Shown here: piece after piece, positions 1 to 24,291 of the stretch
Position numbering within the stretch: position 1 is the stretch's first letter
Layout of the letters: each line of letters starts with the position of its first letter
The notes under the pieces: generated by a model
Database searches by the model: none
What the model was told of the DNA's origin: nothing
Seen by the model: only the letters and a program-made list of their open reading frames with translations
Program-made: the position numbers and the translations under genes
Virus record (IMG/VR): IMGVR_UViG_3300008216_002947
Span: 1-24,291 of that record
Reading direction: 5' to 3' (one strand)
From: a virus
Taxonomy: Duplodnaviria; Caudoviricetes
DNA length: 24,291 nt

Positions 1-2029
1 GACTTGAATAGAGCCACCCATTAACGGCTCCTCCATCTACATTTATTTGTGCATCAGAGGCACATAATACTATATCGCCAGCAATATCCAGCTCCTTCGT
101 TGGAGCAGTCGTTCCGATGCCGACGTTTCCACCGGTTTCTATGACCATTTTCGGCAAAGCAAAGCTGCTCGTCGGAGAAAATACAAACGCATTGCTCAGG
201 CTGTAATCAACGCCAACAAACCAGTCCGCGTTTGTATTAAAGTGAATAGCAGCATCATAAGGGTCGTTAGGACCAAGGCGAAGCGTATTAGCCTCGCCTG
301 ACTTGGAAAGGTGGAGCAAGGCGTAGGGACTCGACGTGCCGATGCCTACGTTGCCGGAACCGAGAACAGTGATAAGATTCGTACTTAAATTGTTGACCTG
401 CAATACCGTCTCGGCATCTGCCAGCATCGCGACCCCCGTGCTCCCGTTCGACTTCCCTCCCCTGAGAAGGATTGCAGGAACAGTGTCGGTTGGATCGGTG
501 ACACCAATTAACCCAACCAGAGTCATACCAGAAATTCCAGCCGCGTCTGACGCGCCGTAGATCAAGCCCCCGCCATCAGCGGCGTTTGCGTCGCGCACGT
601 AGAATAGCGCATCTGTTGGCAGCTCGTTAGTGATTCCGTGAGCCACTCCCGAGAATGAGATTGCGAAGCCATTGTTTGTGGTCATCTTCAGGTCGAGCAA
701 CTTCGACGGACTCGACGTGCCGATGCCGACGTTGCCGTCGCCCCGAAGGACCAGCACATCGTTCACCTGAGTGCCTGAACCGCTTGAAATATCAAACGTG
801 AGATTGTTGCTTGCGGCTGTCCCTGAGTAAGTCGCGGATACAGAGTGAATGAAGTTGGCATCGAGTCCAATATTGATGTGATCGGCTCCCCCCCCTGCGC
901 CTTGCACGTGCAGGGGAGCCCCCGGGCTCGCTGTGCCGATACCGACGTTGCCGTTACCGATGATAACAAGAGCATTGGCGTTATTGATAGACGCATCCGA
1001 CGATTTAGTCGCAATTTTAAGGATTCCTGCGGTGCTGGCGTCAGTCCCATACGCAGCGAGTTGGCTGATATTAGAACCCTCAAAAGACAGCTTTGTGACG
1101 TTAGCTTCATTTACAAGGTTGTTGTCAGATGAAACAATAGCGCCACCCACAGTGAGTTCCCCTACAGCATCCACCGACACGACCTTGTCAGGCGTCCCGT
1201 CGCTCGCGCTCAACTCGCTGTGTCGATGTAGAGTATCAGCCATCGAGTTGTCGGTGAGGGTAGCCGTAACGGTGTTCAGCAAAGCCATCGTCCCGGTGAA
1301 GGCGACTCCGCCAAGCTGGAAGTTAGTGGCCGTGGCTACATTTAGAGTGCTAGCCATATGCACCGCACCGTCAATGTCAACGATGTCTAAGTTGGCGGTG
1401 CCATCAATGTCTGCATCTCCACTCACATCGAGAGATCCCGCATCTAGCTCTCCTGTTAGGGTGATGTTTCTCAAGGTGGAAATATCCTTATTGCCATCTA
1501 CGATTAGAGCCTTATTGGCAATGACTGTGCCGGCCGTAATATCATCGATAGCCTCTAGCTCAGCCTCGGCAATAACCGCACTACCAAGAGTTAAAGCATT
1601 CCCTGTAATTAACCCTGAAACCGTAATAGAGGATGCTGTAGTGACCGCCAGGGCCGAAGTCCCCGCCACCGTAAGACCTGCGGCACCTACCAGCTTCAAG
1701 TCGTCGGCACTCTCGTCCCAGAGCATATACGCATCGGCGGTGTCCCCCCAGAACTTCACGTCATGCCCGGTGCCGTTGACTCCTACGGTAAGAGTGCCGG
1801 CGAAGGTGGACGCCCCAGTCACCTCCAGGGAGCCGTGGACTATCTCGGTGACGATTACCGAGGCGTTTAAGGTAAATGGCGTTGAGTCTGGATTACTCAG
1901 CAGCTGCGACAGGGTCCAGCGATTGGCGTCTGCGTTTATTCGCGAGACGTTAAGGGCATCCTCAGAGGTCGGGTCCTCTTCGGACCAGCGAGTGCCGAGG
2001 GTCACATAGCTATATGGATTGGATGCCAT
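1..2029 (-). CDS. Tail fibre / receptor-binding protein with GNVGIGT repeats (partial, runs off the left edge; >676 aa)
   Basis: Not in the ORF track because it has no stop in the window. I translated it by hand from the ATG at 2029-2027 (TAATG overlap with the upstream stop): MASNPYSYVTLGTRWSEEDPTSEDALNVSRINADANRW..., open to position 1. It has four repeats: GNVGIGTASPGAPLHV, GNVGIGTSSPSKLLDL, GNVGIGTSSPYALLHL and GNVGIGTTAPTKELDI. It is G/T/S/A/D-rich and lies after the hub gene. Confidence 0.88.
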   Translation of the reverse strand, partial: MASNPYSYVTLGTRWSEEDPTSEDALNVSRINADANRWTLSQLLSNPDSTPFTLNASVIVTEIVHGSLEVTGASTFAGTLTVGVNGTGHDVKFWGDTADAYMLWDESADDLKLVGAAGLTVAGTSALAVTTASSITVSGLITGNALTLGSAVIAEAELEAIDDITAGTVIANKALIVDGNKDISTLRNITLTGELDAGSLDVSGDADIDGTANLDIVDIDGAVHMASTLNVATATNFQLGGVAFTGTMALLNTVTATLTDNSMADTLHRHSELSASDGTPDKVVSVDAVGELTVGGAIVSSDNNLVNEANVTKLSFEGSNISQLAAYGTDASTAGILKIATKSSDASINNANALVIIGNGNVGIGTASPGAPLHVQGAGGGADHINIGLDANFIHSVSATYSGTAASNNLTFDISSGSGTQVNDVLVLRGDGNVGIGTSSPSKLLDLKMTTNNGFAISFSGVAHGITNELPTDALFYVRDANAADGGGLIYGASDAAGISGMTLVGLIGVTDPTDTVPAILLRGGKSNGSTGVAMLADAETVLQVNNLSTNLITVLGSGNVGIGTSSPYALLHLSKSGEANTLRLGPNDPYDAAIHFNTNADWFVGVDYSLSNAFVFSPTSSFALPKMVIETGGNVGIGTTAPTKELDIAGDIVLCASDAQINVDGGAVNGWLYSS
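327..737. repeat. Direct repeat, 29/30 nt identical (327-356 and 708-737), encoding GNVGIGTSSP
   Basis: GGACTCGACGTGCCGATGCC(t/g)ACGTTGCCG occurs twice; more diverged copies lie near 110-134 and 933-955. Confidence 0.9.
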
Positions 2030-2355
2030 TACTCAAGAGCCTCCGTTAAGAACTCACGGTGCGGACCAGGGGGAAGGAAATCGAGGACCTCGGCGTTCCC
2101 TTCCCACCGATGGCGGTATATTACCCGCCTGTTGTTGGTGGACGATATGGCAGGACCCCACTCAACCCGAGAAGTGGGGGGGTCCAAGCTGTTTAAGGCG
2201 GTCACTCGCACCGCGGCGACGGTATCACCTGCCAGATCCACCGTACTCCCCCCCGGGGGAAAATCCACCTTCTTTGAAGGAAGCAGGGCCCTTTTTTCTA
2301 CCTCTGGGGACACCACCAGCCGCAGGTGACGATCCAATTCCTCAAACTGCGTCAT
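2029..2355 (-). CDS. Hypothetical tail-associated protein (108 aa)
   Basis: Coupled by 1-nt stop/start overlaps to the hub gene upstream and the fibre gene downstream; no recognisable motif. Confidence 0.7.
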   Translation of the reverse strand: MTQFEELDRHLRLVVSPEVEKRALLPSKKVDFPPGGSTVDLAGDTVAAVRVTALNSLDPPTSRVEWGPAISSTNNRRVIYRHRWEGNAEVLDFLPPGPHREFLTEALE

Positions 2356-5015
2356 CAGTAAACCCCCATATCGGGCCCACAGTGAGATATGGCCGAATAA
2401 ATGTCATTCTCCTCCACTCGGCCTGAATATAAGCAGCACCAGCCGCTCTGTGCTCTTTCAACGGCAGTCGCGGCGTCATAGGCCGGGTGGTCATCAGGAC
2501 AACAGCGCCCCACCGGCTTGTAAGAAATCGGCATCTCCTGCATTTCAATACGGACTTGCGCCTTCTCAACATCGACCTTAAGCCCGGTCACTTCCCAGCG
2601 AACGAAGTTAAGCCGCTTAAGGCCGGCGGCAGCACTGTGAGCAATGGCGACCGTCTGCGCCTGTGCTCTGACCACCGTTAAATTGCCGTTTGTCGCTACG
2701 GCAGTGACCTTGACGACCTCCTTGTCACTTACGAGGAGATAGTCATCTTCCCGAAAACAAAGCCCCGAAGAACACTCGAACACCGTAGAGGCATCAGTCT
2801 CAGCATTTGTCAACGTTCCAAGCTGAATCGGCCGCTTGGACGACGGCAGCCAGGGGTGATCAAACCAAGCCACATCCCCGAGCTCAACGTTAATCGCATT
2901 CATAAAGGTAGCGAATTCGATCACATAGCGCCGTTCAGACCGCCACTCTTCAAGGTGAGTTAAGAAATGCCCAGCCGTGGTTGAATCGCCAATCAAATCA
3001 GAAGAAAAGCCGCCGATGGCGCGAAAACCGCGGGTTTCTTCCCCCAGCGGGTTCGTCGTCTTATATCTCAGCTGCGACCTCTTCATAGCGCCGGTGAGAT
3101 TCGGCCCTGCATAGTAGGTCGTCCCGGCGTTAGCGTCATTGACCCCGAGCGCGTGCGTCAGCGTCAGCTGTGTTTCCGAGGTGACAGCTGAAACCGTGTA
3201 ATCTTTATCCCCGACGACGTAAGCAGTCTCGCCAACACCAACGCCATCAGTGACGAATTCCGCAGAGGCGTCTGTGAGCACGCCTGTACTGCCGACGACG
3301 GAACAGGTGCCTGTAACCCTGTGCCGGCCCGTGGCAGTTTCAAGGGCGGTGTACTCACCTGTGCCGCGATCCTTGCGATGCTTCAATACCACGTCATTGA
3401 TTATGTCACGGGTGGGGGTCTTGCCGAACGCTATATCGGGCTCCCAGAGGTGCTGGGGTTCTTCGGGGTTAGCGACCGCAATGTGTTCCGTACCGAGAAA
3501 GGCGTGGTCAGGCGTCCGGTCTTTCTCCATCGCCACCATTTTCCACTTGCCCTCGAAGGACATGAAAATGTGCATCCCGGCGGTGAACCCGAAATTGTTT
3601 AACCATTTTATCTGATCGATGGTATCGTCTTCGCTGAACCTGAACGACCAGCCGGTGCGAGCCGTGGCGGCCGTCGCCACGGCGGCTGCATCCACGTTAG
3701 CGGTTGGCAGCTCCAGAAGTGCCTTACCGCGTAGGGCCGCCCCGAGAACGTGAGCCGGGTTGTCCAGAGCGGCCCCAGAGCTGGAAAGGACCAAGCCGTC
3801 GGCATAATTCGTTGTGAGGTCTTCCCACCCGGTCACTTTTTGATGGATCGACAGTTCCTGCCGGTCAGTGGTCAGCTGGTCGTCAAAGGTCACCTCAAGG
3901 TAAATCTGCTTGATAGCAGCAGAAGCAGACCCGGCAATCTGCACCTCATACAGCTCGAAATCCCAATCGTCGGCGTGGTCCGTCGCGAAATTGCTTAAGG
4001 TAATGGTCTGGTTGCCAGTGACCGACCCAGCCGAAAAAATACTAACTGTTTTATACAGAATAGCGTAACCAAATGTGCCGGCCGCATTGATCTGTATCAG
4101 CCCAGAAATCACCGTCCCCAGCTTCGGCACACCCCCGATCTTAACGTCAAGGTTGTCGTCGCCGACAACTGAGACCGACGTGCTGTTATCTCCATCCATT
4201 ACCCGTGGATAAAGTGCCACGTCGTTCGTCCCAGACGGTAGAACGGGATACAGCCTCATTTCTCGCCGGCCGTCGGTGACGGTCAGGGTTTCGTCGCTTT
4301 GCGTCGAATTGACGATTTCAGCGTATCGGCGAGCGTGGTCGTAATACTGAAACGCCACCCCATAAGCGTCACATCGCTTGCCGGCAGTGTATTCTCGAAG
4401 GAATCCATTGGTCGTTCTACAGGGTGCGAGAAAGGCAAAAGCACCGGCGTCGTCATGCGGCCCGACGTTAAGGGCCCCGACCGCCCAGGGGAGGGGTAAG
4501 CCAAGGGCATCAAAAGGCGCATCGGGATACTCGATAAGGGTGATTAAGTCTCTCGGGAAAGCCTGAAAGTCCTTATCGCTGCCGTCGATGCAGTCGAGGA
4601 CCCAGTTTCGTATATCAAAGGGAGTGTCTTCAATAACTGACCGTGCAATCTGCACAGCGTCCGACTTCTCTTCATCGCCATCGGCGTTAACGAACGAGAC
4701 ATACAGCCGCACCTCGTCATTTTCCAGAAAGTAAGTGTCGCCGGTGTTGCTCTCGACGCCCTCATTTCGGATGGCGGCCTGTAGCGTTGCCACCGAAGCA
4801 AGACCCCCGCCCATCTTTATGCGGTTCCATGAGACCCTTAAACCATCTGGGACGAAGCTGTCGGTGTAGACCTTCGTTGACAGCGTGTATTTGCGAGAGC
4901 CAAAATACAGCGTAGCCGCCGCATTCGGTGAATCGGCGTCCACTTCAAGGAGCCAGACGATTTGAACCGCATCCTTGACTTTTTCAGCCAGAGCTTTGGC
5001 CGAAAGGGTTTTCAT
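2355..5015 (-). CDS. Baseplate hub / tail tip (Tal- or gpJ-like) protein (886 aa)
   Basis: Follows tape measure and distal tail; contains DNPAHVL (NPA motif), IINDVVLKHR and NAINVELGDVAWFDHP...WEVTGLKVD..VRIEMQE, typical of tail-tip hub proteins; ATGA overlap with the upstream gene. Confidence 0.75.
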   Translation of the reverse strand: MKTLSAKALAEKVKDAVQIVWLLEVDADSPNAAATLYFGSRKYTLSTKVYTDSFVPDGLRVSWNRIKMGGGLASVATLQAAIRNEGVESNTGDTYFLENDEVRLYVSFVNADGDEEKSDAVQIARSVIEDTPFDIRNWVLDCIDGSDKDFQAFPRDLITLIEYPDAPFDALGLPLPWAVGALNVGPHDDAGAFAFLAPCRTTNGFLREYTAGKRCDAYGVAFQYYDHARRYAEIVNSTQSDETLTVTDGRREMRLYPVLPSGTNDVALYPRVMDGDNSTSVSVVGDDNLDVKIGGVPKLGTVISGLIQINAAGTFGYAILYKTVSIFSAGSVTGNQTITLSNFATDHADDWDFELYEVQIAGSASAAIKQIYLEVTFDDQLTTDRQELSIHQKVTGWEDLTTNYADGLVLSSSGAALDNPAHVLGAALRGKALLELPTANVDAAAVATAATARTGWSFRFSEDDTIDQIKWLNNFGFTAGMHIFMSFEGKWKMVAMEKDRTPDHAFLGTEHIAVANPEEPQHLWEPDIAFGKTPTRDIINDVVLKHRKDRGTGEYTALETATGRHRVTGTCSVVGSTGVLTDASAEFVTDGVGVGETAYVVGDKDYTVSAVTSETQLTLTHALGVNDANAGTTYYAGPNLTGAMKRSQLRYKTTNPLGEETRGFRAIGGFSSDLIGDSTTAGHFLTHLEEWRSERRYVIEFATFMNAINVELGDVAWFDHPWLPSSKRPIQLGTLTNAETDASTVFECSSGLCFREDDYLLVSDKEVVKVTAVATNGNLTVVRAQAQTVAIAHSAAAGLKRLNFVRWEVTGLKVDVEKAQVRIEMQEMPISYKPVGRCCPDDHPAYDAATAVERAQSGWCCLYSGRVEENDIYSAISHCGPDMGVY

Positions 5016-15962: not shown

Positions 15963-16253
15963 ATGGCAAAGAAAACCTTCACAGAGGGTGACAGGGTCAT
16001 CGTCACCAATCCTTGGACAGGCGACAAATCCAAGGCAATTGTCGTTGGCATAGATCAGCCTGTGTTCAAGGGTTCCTTCTGCGTCTACGGTGGTGAGTTA
16101 CTTGTACGCTTCGTCACCAGCACAACCGAGGTCGGTGCCATACTGGAGACAGCACGGATCGCAACTGAAGATGTCACGCTTTACGTTCCTTTCTGTGATG
16201 TTGACAAGGATCAGACCATCGAAGACGAGCACATGCGCCAGGGGAGCCTATAA
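15963..16253 (+). CDS. Hypothetical protein, possible SH3/KOW-like barrel (96 aa)
   Basis: Strong RBS and promoter; FTEGDRVIVT...KAIVVGI pattern. Confidence 0.75.
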   Translation: MAKKTFTEGDRVIVTNPWTGDKSKAIVVGIDQPVFKGSFCVYGGELLVRFVTSTTEVGAILETARIATEDVTLYVPFCDVDKDQTIEDEHMRQGSL

Positions 16254-16274
16254 TATAATGAAAGGGAGCCACAC

Positions 16275-16311
16275 CCTGACACCAGTTTTTTTTTAGAAAG
16301 TTGGTGTCAGG
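16275..16311. repeat. 10-bp perfect inverted repeat (terminator-like hairpin or operator) abutting promoter copy 2
   Basis: CCTGACACCA (16275-16284) / TGGTGTCAGG (16302-16311) around a 17-nt spacer containing T9. Confidence 0.75.
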
Positions 16312-16312
16312 C

Positions 16313-16385
16313 TTGACTTAATATGGGTGATTGCCTATATTGAGTTTCAGTGAGAGGGCAATAAAGCCCCCACTAAAAAGAGGAG
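16313..16385 (+). promoter_or_regulatory. Sigma70-type promoter + stem-loop + RBS cassette, copy 2
   Basis: TTGACT-17nt-TATATT; 23 nt identical to copy 1; hairpin AGTGaGaGGGC-AATAAA-GCCCCCACT; then AAAAAGAGGAG. Confidence 0.82.
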
Positions 16386-16392
16386 CAGCAAC

Positions 16393-16644
16393 ATGCCACG
16401 AGGACGCGGATGGCACATGAGCACGAACATCGTAGCGGCCAATATCGCCGGAACCGAGGTTGGTGCCATACTGAAGGCAGAACAGATTGCGAAGCGAGCG
16501 GCGGACATTATTGACGCCGTATACAAAGAGAAGAGGGAGCGGAATGCCCTGGGTCTGGGCGATGAAGCAATTCCCCCCAAGGATGAAGAGGGCAACAGCA
16601 TTGAAGATGTGCTGAACGGCTTGGATGAAGGGGGTGATAAGTAG
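16393..16644 (+). CDS. Hypothetical acidic protein (83 aa)
   Basis: GAGGAG RBS; shares a TEVGAIL segment with the preceding ORF. Confidence 0.75.
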   Translation: MPRGRGWHMSTNIVAANIAGTEVGAILKAEQIAKRAADIIDAVYKEKRERNALGLGDEAIPPKDEEGNSIEDVLNGLDEGGDK

Positions 16645-16648
16645 TTTG

Positions 16649-16903
16649 ATGGGGTTAACCCCCGCTGAGGGCTTCAGGGTGGCGCAGCTACGCTTAGACG
16701 CCGCGTCTGAAGCCCTTGAAGGTGTATCGGCGGAAGCACTTGCCGCCGCTCAAGCTGCCCTTGATGAAGCAAGGGAAAAGATGGAAAAGATGGAAACCCA
16801 GTGCCACCTCTGCGATGGCACTGGGTTTATTCACGAATGGCGACCAGGCAGTGGTGGAATGTGCCGCTGTGGGACTGGCGCCTCTTATTTTGACCCCAGT
16901 TAA
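16649..16903 (+). CDS. Small helical protein with CxxCxGxG zinc-finger motif
   Basis: Likely start is the ATG at 16649, 4 nt after the upstream stop; CHLCDGTG...CRCGTG resembles DnaJ-type Zn-finger repeats. Confidence 0.65.
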   Translation: MGLTPAEGFRVAQLRLDAASEALEGVSAEALAAAQAALDEAREKMEKMETQCHLCDGTGFIHEWRPGSGGMCRCGTGASYFDPS

Positions 16904-16917
16904 AAAGGAGACGGGAA

Positions 16918-17475
16918 ATGCATGCACCGCGGAATAGGATTAAGAGGTTTTTCACAGATACCGTCAATGATGCCCTGCGAAAAGACGAGAACCTTGAATT
17001 TGTAGCCAATGAACTTGAAAAACGTATTGGGACAAGGGCCTTTAAAATGGACCTCGAACCGCTGCCCTTCACGGCAGGCATTTCTCCTGAAGGTATCACC
17101 GGAGATTATATTCGTGAACTGCGCTGCTGTCTCGGTATCACGAAGAAAAAGATGGCTTGGCTTCTAAAGATCAGCCCTGACATTCTGGCCCGGGTCGAAC
17201 GAGGTCAGTATATCCTTGACCCCCGGCCTGCTTTGGAGTGCTGCAAAATCGGCGAAAAGTTCGCCATTGATGGAACTGTTCCACAGATCAAAGAACCGCC
17301 CCGGAAGTTTTCAGGGGGTGGTGAGCCGGTGGGTGGTCGTAAGAGGCGCCGAACCGTTTCAGTGAAAGACGCATTAAAGGAGCCTGGTTTTGCTGCCAGA
17401 GAGTTCGGCATTGGAATGGCAATCGGTGGCGGGATTCTTTTTGGAGTCCTGAGTCTCTTCCTTGCTATCTTCTAA
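16918..17475 (+). CDS. Cro/CI(Xre)-type HTH protein with C-terminal hydrophobic helix (185 aa)
   Basis: GDYIRELRCCLGITKKKMAWLLKISPDILARVERG is an HTH_3-like pattern; the terminal FGIGMAIGGGILFGVLSLFLAIF is TM-like; RBS AAAAAGGAG. Confidence 0.75.
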   Translation: MHAPRNRIKRFFTDTVNDALRKDENLEFVANELEKRIGTRAFKMDLEPLPFTAGISPEGITGDYIRELRCCLGITKKKMAWLLKISPDILARVERGQYILDPRPALECCKIGEKFAIDGTVPQIKEPPRKFSGGGEPVGGRKRRRTVSVKDALKEPGFAAREFGIGMAIGGGILFGVLSLFLAIF

Positions 17476-17968
17476 GGGCGACCTATTTGGCCCGTCCCTT
17501 ATGGAGGCCCGCACCGCACTCTTCTCAGGTCTGGGCGTGAGTAAGAGTGCGGTGCATTGCCCGTGTTGTGACCAGCACGTCCAGCAGTACAGAAGGCGGC
17601 TGTATAAAGGGCTTGCCGAGATGCTTGTGTGGATGTGTCGCACCTACTCACCGGAGACGGGGTGGATAGATGTCCCTCGGCAAGCCCCGCCAGGCATGGT
17701 CAGGGGCGGTGATTACGCCAAGTTGGAATGGTGGGGCCTTATTAAGCACAAGGTCCACGACAATGACCCGGCTCGCAAAGATTCGGGCCTGTGGATACCG
17801 TCAGAGCTTGGGCTGGAGTTTTGCTTCCATACGTGGCGTCGCATTCAGTCCCACGTTTTGATTTACAATAACGAGCTGCGCGGATTCGCCGGGGAACCTA
17901 TTAATATCATTGAAGCCCTCGGCGGTGACGGCTTTCATTATCAGAGGCTAATGGCTGGGGAGTGGTAG
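17462..17968 (+). CDS. Hypothetical phage protein with CPCC motif and probable winged helix (168 aa)
   Basis: HCPCCDQ..YRRRL and YAKLEWWGLI...SGLWIPSELGLEF resemble a wHTH recognition helix and wing. The start is uncertain (TTG 17462 or ATG 17501). It converges on the minus-strand gene with a 1-nt gap. Confidence 0.7.
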   Translation: MLSSKGDLFGPSLMEARTALFSGLGVSKSAVHCPCCDQHVQQYRRRLYKGLAEMLVWMCRTYSPETGWIDVPRQAPPGMVRGGDYAKLEWWGLIKHKVHDNDPARKDSGLWIPSELGLEFCFHTWRRIQSHVLIYNNELRGFAGEPINIIEALGGDGFHYQRLMAGEW

Positions 17969-17969
17969 G

Positions 17970-18323
17970 TCAGGTCAGAACGGCCAAATCCTTCGTCCAT
18001 CGCCGAGCATCGTTGTCCCAGCTTTCCCGTATATGACGCACCACGGCATCGGCACACTGGGCCACGGTCTTATACCTGTCAGTGTCATAGATGGGGCCGC
18101 GGTCCCCCATCTGTGGGGGGAGGGTGTCTGTGACGTGAAACTCCAGGAAGTCACGGGGGATCACTGCTTCACCCTGCATCCGTGCCATAACATCCCGTGC
18201 ATGGCCCCCACTTGCAACCGGGGAAGTGAATGCAACGGTCATGTTTGCCCCATCATCCACCCACACCCCCACCGGCCTATAATGCTCCTGCGGCCCATAC
18301 GTCCATTCAATCATAAACCTCAT
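17970..18323 (-). CDS. Hypothetical protein, candidate immunity/partner protein 2 (117 aa)
   Basis: ATGA overlap with the upstream gene; second small gene after the MuF-effector fusion. The function is inferred from position only. Confidence 0.7.
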   Translation of the reverse strand: MRFMIEWTYGPQEHYRPVGVWVDDGANMTVAFTSPVASGGHARDVMARMQGEAVIPRDFLEFHVTDTLPPQMGDRGPIYDTDRYKTVAQCADAVVRHIRESWDNDARRWTKDLAVLT

Positions 18324-18805
18324 GGGTCCACCGTTTCAGGCAATTCGTCTTCTTCTTCTTCCTCGTTCATCTCCGGTGGAGTCCACCCGGTGGCCATAAA
18401 TTTCCACTCTTCCAGCAGGTAAGCATCCACTCCTGACGTGTCTCCTGCCTTCCTACGCCATGCTTTGATTCTGGCCTGCTCCCTCTCAGTGGCTGGGGTG
18501 AGGCGCCACTGGTGAACGTCGTTGTAACTGGTCATTGTCAGAATATCCCCATCTGTTGACCATTCAGCCCCATGAATCATTTTAACTGAAGCCTCATCCT
18601 CCTCATATCCCAGGTGCTTGCACAGCAGATAAGGCACGACGCCGGTGATTTTCCCATCATGGTCATACAGCGGTTGGACCCTCACGACCACCACCTCAAC
18701 CAATAGCGCATACGGCTCGCCATCCAAGTCAAGGAATACCCCCTGCTTAAACGGCTTAAGAAGGGGCAGAATCACATCCCGGGTCAGCTTCTCCACGTCC
18801 GTCAC
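18320..18805 (-). CDS. Hypothetical acidic protein, candidate immunity protein 1 (161 aa)
   Basis: GTGA overlap with the MuF stop, GAGGAGG RBS, acidic tail EEEEEDELPE. The function is inferred from position only. Confidence 0.75.
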   Translation of the reverse strand: MTDVEKLTRDVILPLLKPFKQGVFLDLDGEPYALLVEVVVVRVQPLYDHDGKITGVVPYLLCKHLGYEEDEASVKMIHGAEWSTDGDILTMTSYNDVHQWRLTPATEREQARIKAWRRKAGDTSGVDAYLLEEWKFMATGWTPPEMNEEEEEDELPETVDP

Positions 18806-21800
18806 TTAACGACCTCCTCGATTGCACGACCATCTGGCAAAACATCCCACCCAGCGTCTTTATATGCTTTTATCACCTCTCGGCGCTCTGTGCTTGTCTT
18901 CGTTAAAATTACGTCAATGTCATCAATAAGGGACATCGACGTCTTAAAATCAGTTTCGTCATCGTCTCTTTTTCTGGCAATAGTGTCCCAATTACTCGGA
19001 GTTGGCTTACGGTTTTTAGTCTGAAAATCATTCCGTGTATCACCCCAAGCGTCGCCTTTATAAATGGCAGCATCCATTCGCCGAAGGTTTTTGCCCTTAA
19101 AGTAGAGCTGCCCCTTTCGCATCCCAGTCTTATGCCGCAGGCGGGTATAAAAGTAAACAGCACCTCCTTTTTGCATATCACCCCCAGGAGACATTCCACT
19201 AACTGGAATGCCGATCCTCATTTTTTCATTCGTCGAGGCCATGACACCGTTGTTCTGTAAATACTTACTGATGGATGCCGCCATGTCACCACCAGTATAT
19301 AAGCTATGCTGCAAGGTAAATCGGTCAGTGTCAGCATCGTCAAGGTCGAATCGATAAAAGGACCTGTAGCCTGCGCTTTTGGTGTAGTCAGGGCCCGGGG
19401 TGGACCTCTTTCCAAAGAAAGACGATTGAAATTCACCAGTGGGGTTGTAGTCTGGTAAATCTTGCAATTCAGTGACCCCTGCCGCCTTCATTTTGTCCTT
19501 GATCTTCTTTTTCTTTGACCAGTGCTTACGCATTGCAGCAATGCGCTCGCTCTGGCTTGCCCCCCTTGTGTTCAGGTCTTCAATCATAGAAATATATGAC
19601 GGCGTAATGTGTTCCTTGGTGCAGTATGCCTGCTTTTTTAAATACATGAGCTCAAAGTCATCCGGGGTGGCAACCTTCGTGTCCAGGCCCATTATTTTGA
19701 TTTTCTCAAGTATTTGATCCATTGTGCCGGCCCCCATGTCACCATTGACTGTCCCCTCAATGATTCCCTGCTGTGCCCTCCATCCGTCGTTATTTCCGTC
19801 ATACGGCCTATATCTGATGCGCGTCCCATCGTCAAATGTTATTTCATATTGGACGGTATCAGTATCGTAAAAGTTATTGTGCATGGAACTCCCACGAGCG
19901 CGGTCGTTATTAACGGTGAGGCCTCCATCGCCCCCCGGCGTCCTTTTCGTAAAATGGATTGTCTCACGGCGGACGGTAAAGCCAGCCGTCGGCGAGGGGG
20001 CTGCTGCTGCGGGCACGCTTCCCGGTGGGGGGTTCTGGCGTAGATAAGGCCCATACATCTTCCCAGAAAGATGCGGTGCTGGGTCCGTGACCCCCTCGGG
20101 GAAGGTTTTAAGGGCTGTTTTGGACAACACCCCTTCATTCACGTCATCCATCACCTTCATATAAGCCTTTGCCATTTTAGCCACTTCGGGGTCAGCATGG
20201 GTTGCCAGAAGGTTTAAGCTCGGCCTTTCAACATTCATGGCATTAAGCGTTGACTCATTAAAGTCAAAATCACCCGACTTGACGTGCATATTAAGGGTTT
20301 TAACTGCGGCCTCAATTTTCGGAAAAAACGTATCTTGGGCCATTGGTGTCCCCACCCTCTCACCCCCCACTGGGGTTGGCAGACCCCCTTCGATGTTTTG
20401 CTTGTTAATCCATTCCATGACCTTCTCACCCCCGGAATGCCTGACCTTAAGGTCGAGGTTGGCCCGGTCATGTCCTACGCCGGCGCTGTCAGTCATATGG
20501 TCGGCGTAATAAACTGCCCGGAGGTCTTCAATGTCTTCCCCATCAAGGTCTATGGCCTTCCCCTGCCACCCATGCTCCTCAGCTTCTTCGGCTACTTCGC
20601 GAAAGGCTTGCGGGAGAACCCCTTCAACGTCCACCGCCGGTGCTGCTTTCTGCCCAAACGTAAAAGTCTCATCCTTCAGGGCCCGCCGGTAATACCCCTC
20701 AAAGTCGGCCCGCAGCGCATTTTTCCGCGCCACGGCCAGATCAATGAATTCCACCCGCTGGGCCCTGGTGCGAAAGCGGTTTTGAGCATATCCTTCGAGC
20801 ATGTCCCGGTACTTAGTTTCAGGGATCGCCTCGAATTGCTCGATTGCCTTTAAGGTGACCACCGGGTCATAAAAATCAAGCTCTATATCCCCATCCCGAA
20901 GCGCCTTCATGGCCGTATTGTAAATCGGCTCAGATTCACCGAATGCACTATTCGGGTGATAATCAAAATCGAGTTTATCGTCACCCAGGAACTTGAATGC
21001 CTGCCCCTTGTCAATGCCGACAATGCGGCCATCTGGGAAAGTGATCAGCTGACCGGGGTGCCCGTCATGGTTGCTGATTAGCCAATCCAGAACATGCTCT
21101 TTCTGAATGGTCTCCAGCTGGGATGGGGTTAGCCCAGTGATCGGCTTATTTCTCAGGTTACCATCAGACCCCTCAATCCACCGCTGAATGCTGCCCCGGC
21201 GGCCATCGGACAGCTCCACAAAGCGAGCCTCAGCTGCAACGGGGTCCACGAGTCGTTGCAGCTTATAGGCAAACTCGTCCACCATCCCCCTATAAGTCGC
21301 TTCCTTTTTCGTTGCGTGGGGAAACGGCTTAAACATCCATTTGTCACCGCTTGGGTCAAGCCAGAATTCCTTAGAATGGGCCCCCCCGATATTGGCAACT
21401 TCTTTGAAGGTGAAGTGGTCGGCTGGATCTATGCCCTCCCATGCCTGGTCCACCTTTTTCCATTCGTCCAAGTGAGCCGTTGGTGAGGGCGGCGGAGCGG
21501 GTGCCTGGACTATAGCCGGGGAGGGCGGCCCCAGCTGGTCCTTGACGGTTTCTGAGGCTTGTTTAGCCTTGGCGCTCGCCTTCCCGACGAGCTTGCCGTC
21601 TTTGTATTTCTGGAGGATTTCGGCGGAATCAACAGGGGTGATCTTCTTCGAGGTGACCAGCTTCTCATATTCGAGGTGGAACGCCATCGCCTCGGGTGAA
21701 ACCAGGGCGGCGGCCTCATCCTCGGCGGCCTTAATCGCTTTCGCAACATCAGACGGCCCCCAGGAAGCCTTGTCAAAGACCGTTTCGTGTATGCCCCCTG

Positions 21801-23904
21801 GGCCCAGGGCGAGGTCTTTGGCTTTCTTCTTCGTCTTCTTCAATGCGGCCGCGGTCAGCTTTCCCTCGCTGATCGAATTAAGAAGGGCGGTATATTCCTC
21901 AATCTTTCCAACATTGGAGCTTGCCTTGCCCACATCAATCGCATCTTTAACTGCCTCGGAGACCCCCACCTTGTCTAATCCGAAGGCCATTGAATCAAGG
22001 TGAACGCCTTCGTCCCCCGCCTTAACGGCTTTTCTAATAAAGCCCTGAACATCAGGATTATTAGGGTCAGAACCCTCAATTTTTAAGATGAGCGCGTCAA
22101 AGTCGGTTTTTTTGCCGATTGCTTGGATCTGCCAGGAGTAGCCAAGGACTTGATCCTCATAAGGCTTCATCTGTAGGTCATTAAAGAGATTTGAGTGAAG
22201 CATTTCACTCCAAGCCGCCTTTGCTTCAGAGTGCACGTCCTCCAATGACTTAATGCCATCTTGAACCTTGGTGTAATCTGCGGCTTCCTGGAACTTGAGA
22301 ATTAGGGGGGTCTGCTTTTCTCCAATGGCTGCTGAAATCCTCTGCTCATATTGCTGCCCCCAGGTTGCCTTTATATTTAGGTCGGGGGACAGGGCTTGAG
22401 CTTCATCAAGAAGGGGCTTCAGCTTCGGATCAAATTCTATCTCTGCATGGACCCCTTGCCCCCATTCCTCCACCTGCTTTTTTGCCGCTGCTGGTATCTT
22501 AAGCTCAATGTCTTGGCTGACAATCTTGAACTTTGCACCGTTGATTCCATCGGTAACCAGCTTTTCCTTGACACCAAACTCATCAGCTGCTGCCACTGCC
22601 TTATACAGTAAAAGGTCTTCATCAAGCAGCTTTTCAAGGGGTTTCAGCGCCTGCTTCGCTTCCCAGATCGCCGGCGCAAGGCTTGCCTTTTCACCCCCTG
22701 GGAGCTTCAAGTCTGAGGCTTTGTGAAACTTAAGGGGGTCAATCTCCGACACCATGCTGAGAGTGCTGTCGATCTTCTGCCCGAGCTTGAGCTTCTTTCT
22801 CAGCGCCTCAAGGGCGGCCTTGGCGGCCGTATCAGCGGCCAGATCCTTCGCAGCAGCGATTGCCGCCTGTTGCAGGGCTTCCTGTGCGGCCTTAGTGGTT
22901 GCCCGGCTAACGGCGGCCTTAGAGGGTTTAAGGGGAACCCCTGTAAGAGTGGTCTTTGCCAGCCCGGCCCCTTGCAGCTGGGCCTCGGGGACATCGTCGA
23001 ACCACTCGGGGCGCCCGGCTATTAAGACGCTGCGACAGAGATGGAACGGACTGAGCCGCGGCGGGCGGCCATATTTGGAATTGTCCCACTGCTCCAGGGA
23101 CATCGCTTTCTGGGTGGAGGCCGATTCACAGATCCTTGTCGAGCGGGAATCCTGGGGGTTGCTGTTCCTAAAAACGGCCTCATCGCCAAGGGTTTCCTCG
23201 GCCAGGGCCTCATGGGTGCGGTTGATTATGCGGGTCGACTCGATGCGGGCAATGGCCTGGGCCCGCTGTCGGATCGAGCGGTGAATGGTCTTCCCGCTCA
23301 TCGACTTAATGGTAAGCGGCTTTATGCGGCCCCCTTGGATTAGCCTCGACTTCAGGCTATCGACGTTCGGGTCGTAGTGATCCACGGGAATTCCTTCAAC
23401 GACCGAGTCGAGCATGGTCTGCCGAAACCACGTCCCGACGTCATCGCCCACCGTGTTCATCACCTGATAACCCTGCTTGAACCCGACGGTTAGAACGCCC
23501 TTTTCGGCGATGGAGATGTTATCGAAGGCGCTTTTAACCAGCTCGGGCGACAGATCGCCGACGTCGAGGTTCACTGAGGCCAAGCGGCGCCCGGCTTTGT
23601 GCATCAGCGGGACAGTCTTTTCCGACCACGCCTTGCCCGGGCCCACGAGCACGCTGTCGATCTGGGGCTTTACAGTGTCACGGTAATAAGCCCCCGCGGC
23701 TTCAAGGTTCGCGGGGATGTTTTGTATCTTCCCATCAGCATCAGTGAGCAGCGCCTGAAACAGCTTCTCCTGCTTCGCCAGCTCGACCTCTGCAGCGCCG
23801 AAAATGCCCTGTAGCTCCACGGCAGCAGCCCCCACGACCTCCTTTTCGAGGGTGTCTCGAAGCTGGTGCATTTCCGCGATCATTGTGGGTATAGTGAGCG
23901 GCAT
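18802..23904 (-). CDS. MuF/SPP1-gp7-like head morphogenesis protein fused to a PI3K/HipA-like kinase and a putative ADP-ribosyltransferase domain (1700 aa)
   Basis: aa 1-300: RAQAIARIES...DSRSTRIC...PPRLSPFHLCRS (MuF). aa 840-970: GGAHS, WMFKP, DEFAYKL, GSIQRWI, LDWLISNHDGHPGQ, IDKGQAF (atypical kinase). aa 1530-1700: QHSL..YLQNNGVMAS, GGAVYFYTR, DETDFK (ART-like). Confidence 0.85.
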   Translation of the reverse strand: MPLTIPTMIAEMHQLRDTLEKEVVGAAAVELQGIFGAAEVELAKQEKLFQALLTDADGKIQNIPANLEAAGAYYRDTVKPQIDSVLVGPGKAWSEKTVPLMHKAGRRLASVNLDVGDLSPELVKSAFDNISIAEKGVLTVGFKQGYQVMNTVGDDVGTWFRQTMLDSVVEGIPVDHYDPNVDSLKSRLIQGGRIKPLTIKSMSGKTIHRSIRQRAQAIARIESTRIINRTHEALAEETLGDEAVFRNSNPQDSRSTRICESASTQKAMSLEQWDNSKYGRPPRLSPFHLCRSVLIAGRPEWFDDVPEAQLQGAGLAKTTLTGVPLKPSKAAVSRATTKAAQEALQQAAIAAAKDLAADTAAKAALEALRKKLKLGQKIDSTLSMVSEIDPLKFHKASDLKLPGGEKASLAPAIWEAKQALKPLEKLLDEDLLLYKAVAAADEFGVKEKLVTDGINGAKFKIVSQDIELKIPAAAKKQVEEWGQGVHAEIEFDPKLKPLLDEAQALSPDLNIKATWGQQYEQRISAAIGEKQTPLILKFQEAADYTKVQDGIKSLEDVHSEAKAAWSEMLHSNLFNDLQMKPYEDQVLGYSWQIQAIGKKTDFDALILKIEGSDPNNPDVQGFIRKAVKAGDEGVHLDSMAFGLDKVGVSEAVKDAIDVGKASSNVGKIEEYTALLNSISEGKLTAAALKKTKKKAKDLALGPGGIHETVFDKASWGPSDVAKAIKAAEDEAAALVSPEAMAFHLEYEKLVTSKKITPVDSAEILQKYKDGKLVGKASAKAKQASETVKDQLGPPSPAIVQAPAPPPSPTAHLDEWKKVDQAWEGIDPADHFTFKEVANIGGAHSKEFWLDPSGDKWMFKPFPHATKKEATYRGMVDEFAYKLQRLVDPVAAEARFVELSDGRRGSIQRWIEGSDGNLRNKPITGLTPSQLETIQKEHVLDWLISNHDGHPGQLITFPDGRIVGIDKGQAFKFLGDDKLDFDYHPNSAFGESEPIYNTAMKALRDGDIELDFYDPVVTLKAIEQFEAIPETKYRDMLEGYAQNRFRTRAQRVEFIDLAVARKNALRADFEGYYRRALKDETFTFGQKAAPAVDVEGVLPQAFREVAEEAEEHGWQGKAIDLDGEDIEDLRAVYYADHMTDSAGVGHDRANLDLKVRHSGGEKVMEWINKQNIEGGLPTPVGGERVGTPMAQDTFFPKIEAAVKTLNMHVKSGDFDFNESTLNAMNVERPSLNLLATHADPEVAKMAKAYMKVMDDVNEGVLSKTALKTFPEGVTDPAPHLSGKMYGPYLRQNPPPGSVPAAAAPSPTAGFTVRRETIHFTKRTPGGDGGLTVNNDRARGSSMHNNFYDTDTVQYEITFDDGTRIRYRPYDGNNDGWRAQQGIIEGTVNGDMGAGTMDQILEKIKIMGLDTKVATPDDFELMYLKKQAYCTKEHITPSYISMIEDLNTRGASQSERIAAMRKHWSKKKKIKDKMKAAGVTELQDLPDYNPTGEFQSSFFGKRSTPGPDYTKSAGYRSFYRFDLDDADTDRFTLQHSLYTGGDMAASISKYLQNNGVMASTNEKMRIGIPVSGMSPGGDMQKGGAVYFYTRLRHKTGMRKGQLYFKGKNLRRMDAAIYKGDAWGDTRNDFQTKNRKPTPSNWDTIARKRDDDETDFKTSMSLIDDIDVILTKTSTERREVIKAYKDAGWDVLPDGRAIEEVVK

Positions 23905-23907
23905 TTA

Positions 23908-24291
23908 TTAATTCTCTGACGGGTCCCTTGGGACCAGTAATTCATCGGGAATGAGTTGATCCATCCTCTGTTGTGGGATTTCTATGTGCAGCGAAGGCAG
24001 TGCTTCGTTCATCACATCGCGGGTCGAATGAAACAGCCGCCCCCCGTTAAGGCGGCGGTAGACGTAGAAGGTCGTTTTCCAGACGCCGATTCTGACAATC
24101 CTTGCGGGGCTGCCCTCTAATATTACAATTTCATCGACGACGTAGGTGCCGCTGCGCAGTACCATAATCGAGGTGACGAACGACTTGATCGTCTCCTTAA
24201 AAACGATTATCCCGACAAAAAGGCAGACCAGCCACCAAAATTCGCCGAGAATCACCATCACCTCCTCGGCCAGCGGGGAGGTGATTTTATC
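23908..24291 (-). CDS. MscS-like small membrane protein (TM helix + beta domain); N-terminus may lie outside the window
   Basis: FKETIKSFVTSIMVLRSGTYVVDEIVILEGSPARIVRIGVWKTTF parallels the MscS TM3/beta-domain consensus. The frame stays open from the track's GTG (24261) to the window edge. Confidence 0.65.
   Translation of the reverse strand, partial: DKITSPLAEEVMVILGEFWWLVCLFVGIIVFKETIKSFVTSIMVLRSGTYVVDEIVILEGSPARIVRIGVWKTTFYVYRRLNGGRLFHSTRDVMNEALPSLHIEIPQQRMDQLIPDELLVPRDPSEN

Follow-up and report, generated by a model that had tools for sequence, protein, structure and literature searches.

Here we examine a 24.3-kb fragment from the record of an uncultured virus (IMGVR_UViG_3300008216_002947, Caudoviricetes; 24,291 nucleotides, hereafter the window; estimated completeness 24%), in whose head gene cluster a gene for a 1,700-amino-acid (aa) multi-domain protein, P0001, is chained to two small genes, S1 and S2. 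With a probability of roughly 0.6, we consider P0001 to be a polyvalent head-cluster protein, anchored in the capsid and ejected with the DNA, whose kinase and ADP-ribosyltransferase (ART) domains modify host targets. According to this model, a divergent MuF-like N-terminus would anchor P0001 in the procapsid, the protein would leave the capsid with the DNA at ejection, and early in infection the kinase would phosphorylate, and the DarT-like ART would ADP-ribosylate, host (or competitor) targets; Pro-rich linkers might let the domains act, or be cleaved, independently, and S1 and S2 would handle the kinase-ART cassette before packaging. A preliminary description, made from the DNA letters alone, had pictured two enzyme domains on a head protein followed by two coupled small genes, a view that fold matches and gene context uphold; the chain of three open reading frames (ORFs), the GTGA and ATGA overlaps that join them and the two Pro-rich linkers are likewise present in the sequence. 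The unit comprises the following features:

18802-23904, minus strand: P0001, the 1,700-aa multi-domain head-cluster protein; ORF with an ATG start.
22990-23904, minus strand: aa 1-305 of P0001, tentatively a divergent MuF-like head-attachment domain (weak assignment, from PHROG matches and gene position).
21475-22989, minus strand: aa 306-810, a variable linker rich in Ala, Lys and Leu (by composition) that ends in Pro-rich linker 1.
21481-21531, minus strand: Pro-rich linker 1, aa 792-808, GPPSPAIVQAPAPPPSP (from the sequence).
20650-21462, minus strand: aa 815-1085, a predicted atypical protein-kinase-like domain (PI4K type II / CtkA / HipA-like), from the model and invariant columns.
20035-20649, minus strand: aa 1086-1290, a conserved middle region with a long beta-hairpin and helices (secondary structure of the model).
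19990-20034, minus strand: Pro-rich linker 2, aa 1291-1305, NPPPGSVPAAAAPSP (from the sequence).
19351-19989, minus strand: aa 1306-1518, a beta-rich sub-domain and a helical bundle that pack on the ART-like domain in the AlphaFold2 (AF2) model.
18805-19350, minus strand: about aa 1519-1700, a predicted ART-like fold, nearest DarT, with the candidate triad H1533-Y1584-E1650 (VIA-align and invariant columns).
18320-18805, minus strand: S1, 161 aa; GTG start, with a GTGA overlap with the gene for P0001.
17970-18323, minus strand: S2, 117 aa; ATG start, with an ATGA overlap with S1.

An atypical kinase had been proposed at about aa 820-1080, and the modelled fold together with the motifs confirms aa 815-1085 as a bilobal domain of this kind. 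The AF2 model (mean predicted local distance difference test score, pLDDT, 76) found 17 matches in the PDB with Foldseek at E ≤ 1e-3, and every one listed is a kinase-fold protein, including Fam20C, PknB, aminoglycoside phosphotransferase, CtkA, actin-fragmin kinase, PI3K-like kinases and HipT. On re-scoring with VIA-align, PI4KIIalpha came first (Z 9.9, root-mean-square deviation, rmsd, 4.0, 213 aligned) and CtkA reached Z 9.3 (rmsd 4.3, 202 aligned), with Fam20 (7.8), Vps34 (7.5) and MavQ (7.3) as further neighbours and kinases in 50 of the 50 rows shown. An alignment of aa 815-1295 with 22 relatives of less than 85% mutual identity (A3) holds as invariant G841-x-H843-x-K845, K859, E877, N945-H-D947-x-H949-x-x-Q952 and I-D965-K-G-Q968; by motif analogy, we take K859, D947, H949, Q952 and D965, identical in 23/23 rows, to supply the ATP-binding Lys, the D-x-H-x-x-N/Q catalytic loop and the metal-binding Asp. 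The residues at the catalytic positions are also kept in the mycobacteriophage proteins McProf gp54 and Onyinye gp16 (the latter with Asn for Gln952), minor capsid/ADP-ribosyltransferase fusions whose middle part shares 29-34% identity with aa 841-1093 (tblastn). No named kinase family gave an above-threshold profile match to the domain; HipA_C was seen below threshold in 21 of the 23 family members (best E 2.2e-4), the window protein not among them, and PI3_PI4_kinase below threshold in P0015. The middle region that follows gives weak HEAT_2 matches in 7/23 members, and part of it recurs in Pan1 gp15.

At the C-terminus, our models support at fold level, and with reserve, an ART-like domain at about aa 1519-1700 that is nearest to DarT and not of the Alt/VIP2 type. 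The AF2 model of the C-terminal region has a pLDDT of 81 and a predicted template modelling score (pTM) of 0.80. When the top 1,000 Foldseek candidates were re-scored with VIA-align (996 aligned), a Thermus DarT with carba-NAD ranked first (Z 6.9, rmsd 4.1, 142 aligned, residues 230-405 of the C-terminal model), SopF was second (Z 4.8) and unrelated rows scored at most 3.7. A second VIA-align scan, run over 48,161 representative PDB chains and independent of Foldseek, again placed DarT in ranks 1 to 4 (7omv, Z 6.5; 7yk3_C, 6.4; 7omu, 6.3; 8baq, DarT1, 6.2; 142-150 aligned), and the region matched by DarT also aligned with the tRNA 2'-phosphotransferase Tpt1 (5.1), SopF (4.8) and CteC (4.1). 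The other rows at Z ≥ 5 were solely short helical matches to model residues 115-182, and the neighbouring aa 1306-1518 likewise gave just short helical matches (Z ≤ 5.6). All matches to the ART-like region are thus ART-superfamily proteins, the best four from a single family; the relation is visible just with VIA-align. Given that DarT and Tpt1, its nearest folds, work on nucleic acids, the ART of P0001 would be as likely to modify DNA or RNA as protein.

The candidate active site was read from an alignment of aa 1296-1700 with 22 relatives (A2), which holds 53 invariant columns, many of them charged. H1533, Y1584 and E1650 are invariant in 23/23 rows, as are R1563, D1576, T1587 and R1588; in the model, H1533 lies at a strand end, S1557-T1558 come after a strand, at the opening of a helix, Y1584 is part of the strand GGAVYFYTR and E1650 stands at a strand start. 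In a set of 12 divergent rows, the window's own included, E1650, R1563, D1576, T1587 and R1588 are kept in 12/12. DarT2 has been assigned to the H-Y-E class, with a conserved Arg (PMC11543638); the candidate residues of P0001 occur in the same H-Y-E order, and R1563 could, by analogy, be the counterpart of that Arg. DarT differs in being a stand-alone protein of about 200 aa, whereas the ART-like domain closes a 1,700-aa head-cluster protein after some 220 residues of extra sub-domains, and the two have no sequence-level relation.

We also considered an ART of the Alt/VIP2 type, in line with the analogy to T4 Alt drawn in the preliminary description. In hhalign, the C-terminal domain and the ADPrib_exo_Tox domain of McProf and Onyinye fell out of register, so this assignment is unsupported, and with DarT and Tpt1 as the nearest folds the analogy does not hold for the fold itself. 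Alt has an R-S-E-type active site and is not known as a MuF fusion. It has been placed in the Alt/VIP2 ART family (PMC9503650), and P0001 differs from it in a domain that is nearest to DarT and showed no relation to the ADPrib_exo_Tox profile, used here as a stand-in for the Alt type. What P0001 would share with Alt is a functional likeness, namely a head-packaged ART delivered with the DNA (PMC5512222). Look-ups in the ESM Atlas for aa 1480-1700 and for S2 gave no named or usable neighbours, and a search for a stand-alone form of aa 1476-1700 (homologues of 123-394 aa) gave one fragment and nothing else.

Among giant relatives (P0016, 2,075 aa; P0012, P0013 and P0015, 2,800-2,900 aa), the kinase and the C-terminal module come after about 1,900 unannotated residues. 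The divergent P0016 has lost the kinase catalytic residues and retains E1650, R1563 and H1533 of the ART-like part.

The link of P0001 to the virion head comes from gene position, from its relatives and from PHROG profiles. In a near-identical longer contig (L009), a large terminase gene (219-1607), a portal gene (1564-3060; phrog_145, E 3e-122), a 133-aa ORF and the 1,700-aa gene follow one another, and in the window the scaffold and major capsid genes lie downstream of the 1,700-aa gene; P0001 is therefore encoded just 3' of the portal within the head module, the place of a minor head gene of the SPP1 gp7 type. Taken alone, the first 360 residues match phrog_4728 and phrog_3517, both 'head morphogenesis', at aa 184-304 (E 3.4e-4 and 7e-3). 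In cassette-bearing relatives, a clear Phage_Mu_F / SPP1-gp7 domain spans about aa 160-280 (PF04233, E 1e-12 to 1e-17; TIGR01641, E 1e-17 to 1e-18); these relatives pass the profile thresholds of the family, and the window protein does not reach them. The region compared is that of the conserved MuF core, with the motifs ARxE ... C/D-rich ... P-x-H-x-x-C-R. On these grounds the N-terminus of P0001 may be a divergent MuF-like domain, an assignment we hold to be weak. The following aa 306-810 gave no family match in the Pfam scan and are not kept in relatives that share just about aa 780-1700.

In a sub-group of relatives, MuF is a gene of its own (about 287 aa) that slightly overlaps a gene for a linker-plus-cassette protein of about 1,170-1,180 aa (L012, 172-1035 and 975-4526; L117, L147, L149, L156); since MuF and cassette are two genes there, header and cargo are separable.

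Relatives of P0001 are widespread, and the cassette travels as a unit. Viral contigs yielded 221 stretches that encode a relative, of which the best 80 were fetched; in genomes, taken one per species, there were 154, and 80 of these were fetched. Five other viral contigs hold identical copies of P0001, and full-length homologues are 38-49% identical to it. All 80 viral loci cover the kinase, together with the C-terminal region where the contig allows, and the cassette (about aa 780-1700) is found as a unit in most genome loci as well; most of the fetched viral relatives lie in proteins of about 1,525 aa with a different N-terminal 650 aa, so that among relatives the cassette is the constant part and the N-terminus the varying one. 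A profile search with A2 across 1.84 billion representatives returned 1,628 clusters (50% identity) at E ≤ 1e-3, 1,051 at 1e-10 and 480 at 1e-30. With 221 relatives in viral contigs, 154 in genomes and this number of representative clusters, the feature is not due to chance. The genome hosts are labelled Desulfobacterota, Acidobacteriota, Armatimonadota, Nitrospirota, Planctomycetota, Verrucomicrobiota, Gammaproteobacteria and others, and because several of these loci sit on multi-megabase chromosomes, carriage in prophages is indicated. Cultured carriers include Ectothiorhodospira shaposhnikovii DSM 243, Desulfofustis glycolicus DSM 9705 and Syntrophus buswellii DM-2. One Bryobacterales chromosome has four copies of the whole module, MuF-kinase-ART with S1 and S2 (L113, L151, L152, L154), and therefore several related prophages in one host.

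The architecture around the cassette varies on its N-terminal side. Among the 150 matches listed, the C-terminal module ends the long proteins, with P0055, P0108 and P0143 as exceptions by eye. Twenty-five long members chosen from these 150 for length and spread begin with Phage_Mu_F (19), Phage_min_cap2 (1) or neither (5), and between this header and the C-terminal module two carry NUDIX (P0044, P0152) and two Zeta_toxin (P0118, P0127); the presence of NUDIX beside the ART-like module hints at ADP-ribose processing.

S1 and S2 accompany this cassette closely. The 3' end of the big gene is complete and followed by at least 900 bases in 59 of the 80 viral loci, and at 59/59 of them the big gene is immediately followed by a homologue of S1 and this in turn by one of S2, in most cases through 4-base overlaps; at the genome loci, S1 was found in 79/80 and S2 in 73/80, all misses falling at contig ends. 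S1 is acidic, with a net charge of -17. Across the same four loci, S1 and S2 are 27% and 37% identical, and the enzyme parts 50-53%; the small genes evolve faster than the enzymes. Neither they nor their homologues match any Pfam, PHROG or NCBIfam family, including immunity, macrodomain and NADAR families, so that no counterpart of a DarG macrodomain or NADAR antitoxin was found beside the ART-like domain by these three collections, and a search for S2 homologues gave ten proteins, all unnamed. Most likely, to judge from gene order and conservation, S1 and S2 belong to the cassette as dedicated partners; they might either inhibit it, so that it stays silent in the cell that makes the phage, or serve its loading into the procapsid as chaperones or adaptors. 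Translational coupling links both to a late structural gene, which would favour their acting in the producing cell over immunity of the lysogen.

The preliminary description had suggested one antidote for each enzyme domain, and loci with a single one of the two domains speak to this. Pan1 gp15 lacks the kinase and combines MuF with a portion of the middle region and the C-terminal module; McProf gp54 and Onyinye gp16 have the kinase with another ART. With jackhmmer and hmmsearch, neither S1 nor S2 was found below E 0.05 in the 5-kb flanks of Pan1 gp15 or within 3-4 kb of McProf gp54 and Onyinye gp16. These three cases argue against a simple scheme of one antidote per domain, since both small genes go with the full cassette and each domain can apparently exist without them.

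Several observations weigh against an injected kinase-ART protein. No ART family appears in the Pfam matches of the 23 members at E ≤ 5; neither phmmer nor profile searches with the whole protein, A2 (the C-terminal region) or A3 matched any PDB sequence; and Foldseek of the C-terminal model found nothing in the PDB or BFVD at E ≤ 1e-3. The DarT Z scores of 6.2-6.9 are middling, in a range where a common arrangement alone can suffice, and in the divergent rows H1533 is kept in 9/11 and Y1584 in 9/12, both being replaced in the rest. The ART-like domain of the preliminary description therefore stands as a fold and falls short as a member of a sequence family. Its N-terminal MuF domain fared similarly: gene position and the Phage_Mu_F domains of relatives speak for it and the PHROG matches are weak, whereas P0001 has no Pfam or NCBIfam match, either as a whole, in five pieces (Pfam, E up to 10) or as its N-terminal 350-360 aa, and a local hhalign of its N-terminus with the MuF domain of relatives, in register over 87 columns, was not significant (P 0.075). 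Because the Pan1 and mycobacteriophage loci are without them, S1 and S2 are not universal partners of either domain. Finally, packaging, processing, injection and catalysis of P0001 are steps that we infer, the enzymatic activity of both domains from their modelled folds; packaging and injection are likely, the parallels being MuF/SPP1 gp7, T4 Alt and the model of polyvalent proteins put forward by Iyer et al. 2017 (PMC5512222).

It is this last model that P0001 follows in its general plan. Polyvalent proteins of phages and conjugative elements, kinases and ARTs included, were described by Iyer et al. 2017 (PMC5512222), and P0001 shares with them several enzymes on one polypeptide, a virion-gene context and kinase plus ART-like cargo, with MuF-type headers and module swaps among its relatives. 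Differences lie in the kinase, since the polyvalent kinase group is described as lacking a C-terminal subdomain and the P0001 kinase, compared by description, keeps helices after the core; in the C-terminal module, which matches no Pfam ART or LPD family; and in the fixed pair of small downstream genes, a feature of the P0001 locus that does not figure in the available text on polyvalent proteins (PMC5512222). The supplementary alignments of that study might list a kinase or module of the P0001 type under another name. The pairing itself recurs, given that McProf gp54 and Onyinye gp16, which have the kinase domain in common with P0001 (profile E 3.5e-50 and 5e-35), also have an ART domain at their C-terminus; theirs is ADPrib_exo_Tox, Alt/VIP2-like and unrelated by hhalign to the C-terminus of P0001, and McProf begins with a VG15 domain. 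MuF-ART fusions and head-packaged ARTs have both been described (PMC9503650). The one item of literature found to join DarT, MuF and phage ADP-ribosyltransferases was that same source, whose available text treats DarT and MuF separately.

Other explanations of the three-gene unit have to be set against the capsid-borne effector proposed here. MuF polymorphic toxins with downstream immunity genes are known from temperate phages (Jamet et al. 2017, PMC5576092), and the prophage ART Bxa is accompanied by two protective proteins, Bsi and BAH (Alexei et al. 2024, PMC11699363); P0001 and its relatives recall both in having a MuF-type N-terminus, in P0001 a tentative one, followed by enzymes, carriage in prophages of many bacteria and small genes tightly coupled directly downstream. 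It would follow from this parallel that the C-terminal toxins are interchangeable weapons of bacterial competition and that S1 and S2 are one cognate immunity protein for each toxin domain. Yet a survey for variable C-termini, which the preliminary description had called for within this frame, found the opposite of polymorphism: mean pairwise identity among 17 representative relatives is 52% for MuF, 57% for the kinase and 53% for the C-terminal part, and the cassette stays constant while the N-terminus varies. In S1 and S2 no hydrolase or known immunity signature was seen, no macrodomain or NADAR family either, and they are absent beside single-domain relatives; coupled as they are to a late structural operon, their expression in lysogens would be unlikely. 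We therefore regard a toxin-immunity system of this kind as rather improbable.

The packaged enzymes might instead be turned on the phage itself, modifying its own DNA or virion proteins in the head or after ejection and so shielding the genome from host defences. Nucleic acids are what DarT and Tpt1, with the nearest folds, modify (PMC11543638), and the adenine methyltransferase D12 is fused to scaffold- or protease-like sequence after S2 in relatives; against this, no sign of modified phage DNA was seen, the kinase partner would be left unexplained, and the head-packaged ARTs known so far, T4 Alt among them, have host proteins as their targets (PMC5512222, PMC9503650), so that we think self-modification unlikely. 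Less probable still, and to our mind very unlikely, is a mainly structural cargo: P0001 would be an internal protein of the head or of ejection, with enzyme-like folds that have lost catalysis, and S1 and S2 would be ordinary factors of head assembly. The structural roles of MuF/gp7-type proteins (PMC5576092), the loss of kinase catalytic residues in P0016 and the site of S1 and S2 between minor head and scaffold genes, presumably a frequent place for assembly factors, would all fit, but where catalytic residues are expected, dozens of polar and charged ones do not vary at all across sequences that are just 35-57% identical. A bolder form of the effector model, that a DarT-type nucleic-acid ART is fired from phage heads together with a kinase for offence or genome protection, with S1 and S2 as non-macrodomain antidotes or loading factors, in more than 1,000 clusters, is possible and, as we see it, doubtful.

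Were that bolder form true, the fold of bacterial anti-phage toxins would serve as a phage weapon. Phages are believed to inject MuF-headed multi-enzyme proteins as first-strike tools, and few of the cargo domains of these proteins have been identified or tested; here, folds are assigned to a large unannotated C-terminal module, a DarT-like ART fold paired with an atypical kinase fold, in a family of 1,628 clusters, and a strictly conserved, directly testable three-gene unit is defined. Should the ART prove to modify DNA or RNA, phage offence or self-protection would join bacterial defence (DarTG) as a setting for nucleic-acid ADP-ribosylation, with S1 and S2 as a new class of regulators.

The remaining genes of the neighbourhood belong mostly to the structural module:

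23908-24291, minus strand (L009:3196-3597): the 133-aa ORF between the portal gene and the gene for P0001.
Minus strand, in the window: scaffold gene (phrog_206).
Minus strand, in the window: major capsid gene (phrog_283, E 2.5e-69).
Minus strand, in the window: tape measure gene (PF20155, E 2e-57).
Minus strand, in the window: tail fibre-like gene, part of the structural module.
15963-17968, plus strand: an island of five small ORFs (96, 83, 92, 185 and 168 aa) between S2 and the scaffold gene.

A family match was looked for in the 133-aa ORF and none was found; near its N-terminal half the protein contains a hydrophobic stretch, and the site is an odd one for a membrane-like protein. As had been described, the minus-strand run ends where the opposite-strand island begins, at 17970, the last ORF of the island stopping at 17968, 2 bases from the stop of S2. 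One ORF of the island has a weak HTH_31 match (E 7.8e-4), and the last matches phrog_2693, a family of unknown function. Because the relative L081 passes directly from S2 to the scaffold and coat genes, the island looks like an insertion. In two other relatives, a D12 N6-adenine DNA methyltransferase is encoded after S2 (L013, 9546-11957; L012, 5390-9571), in proteins of 803 and 1,393 aa, respectively; its partner is a sequence with a weak prohead-protease match in L013 and a scaffold-like sequence in L012. These fusions suggest that the methyltransferase is directed into the procapsid, and that capsid-targeted DNA modification occurs in the lineage.

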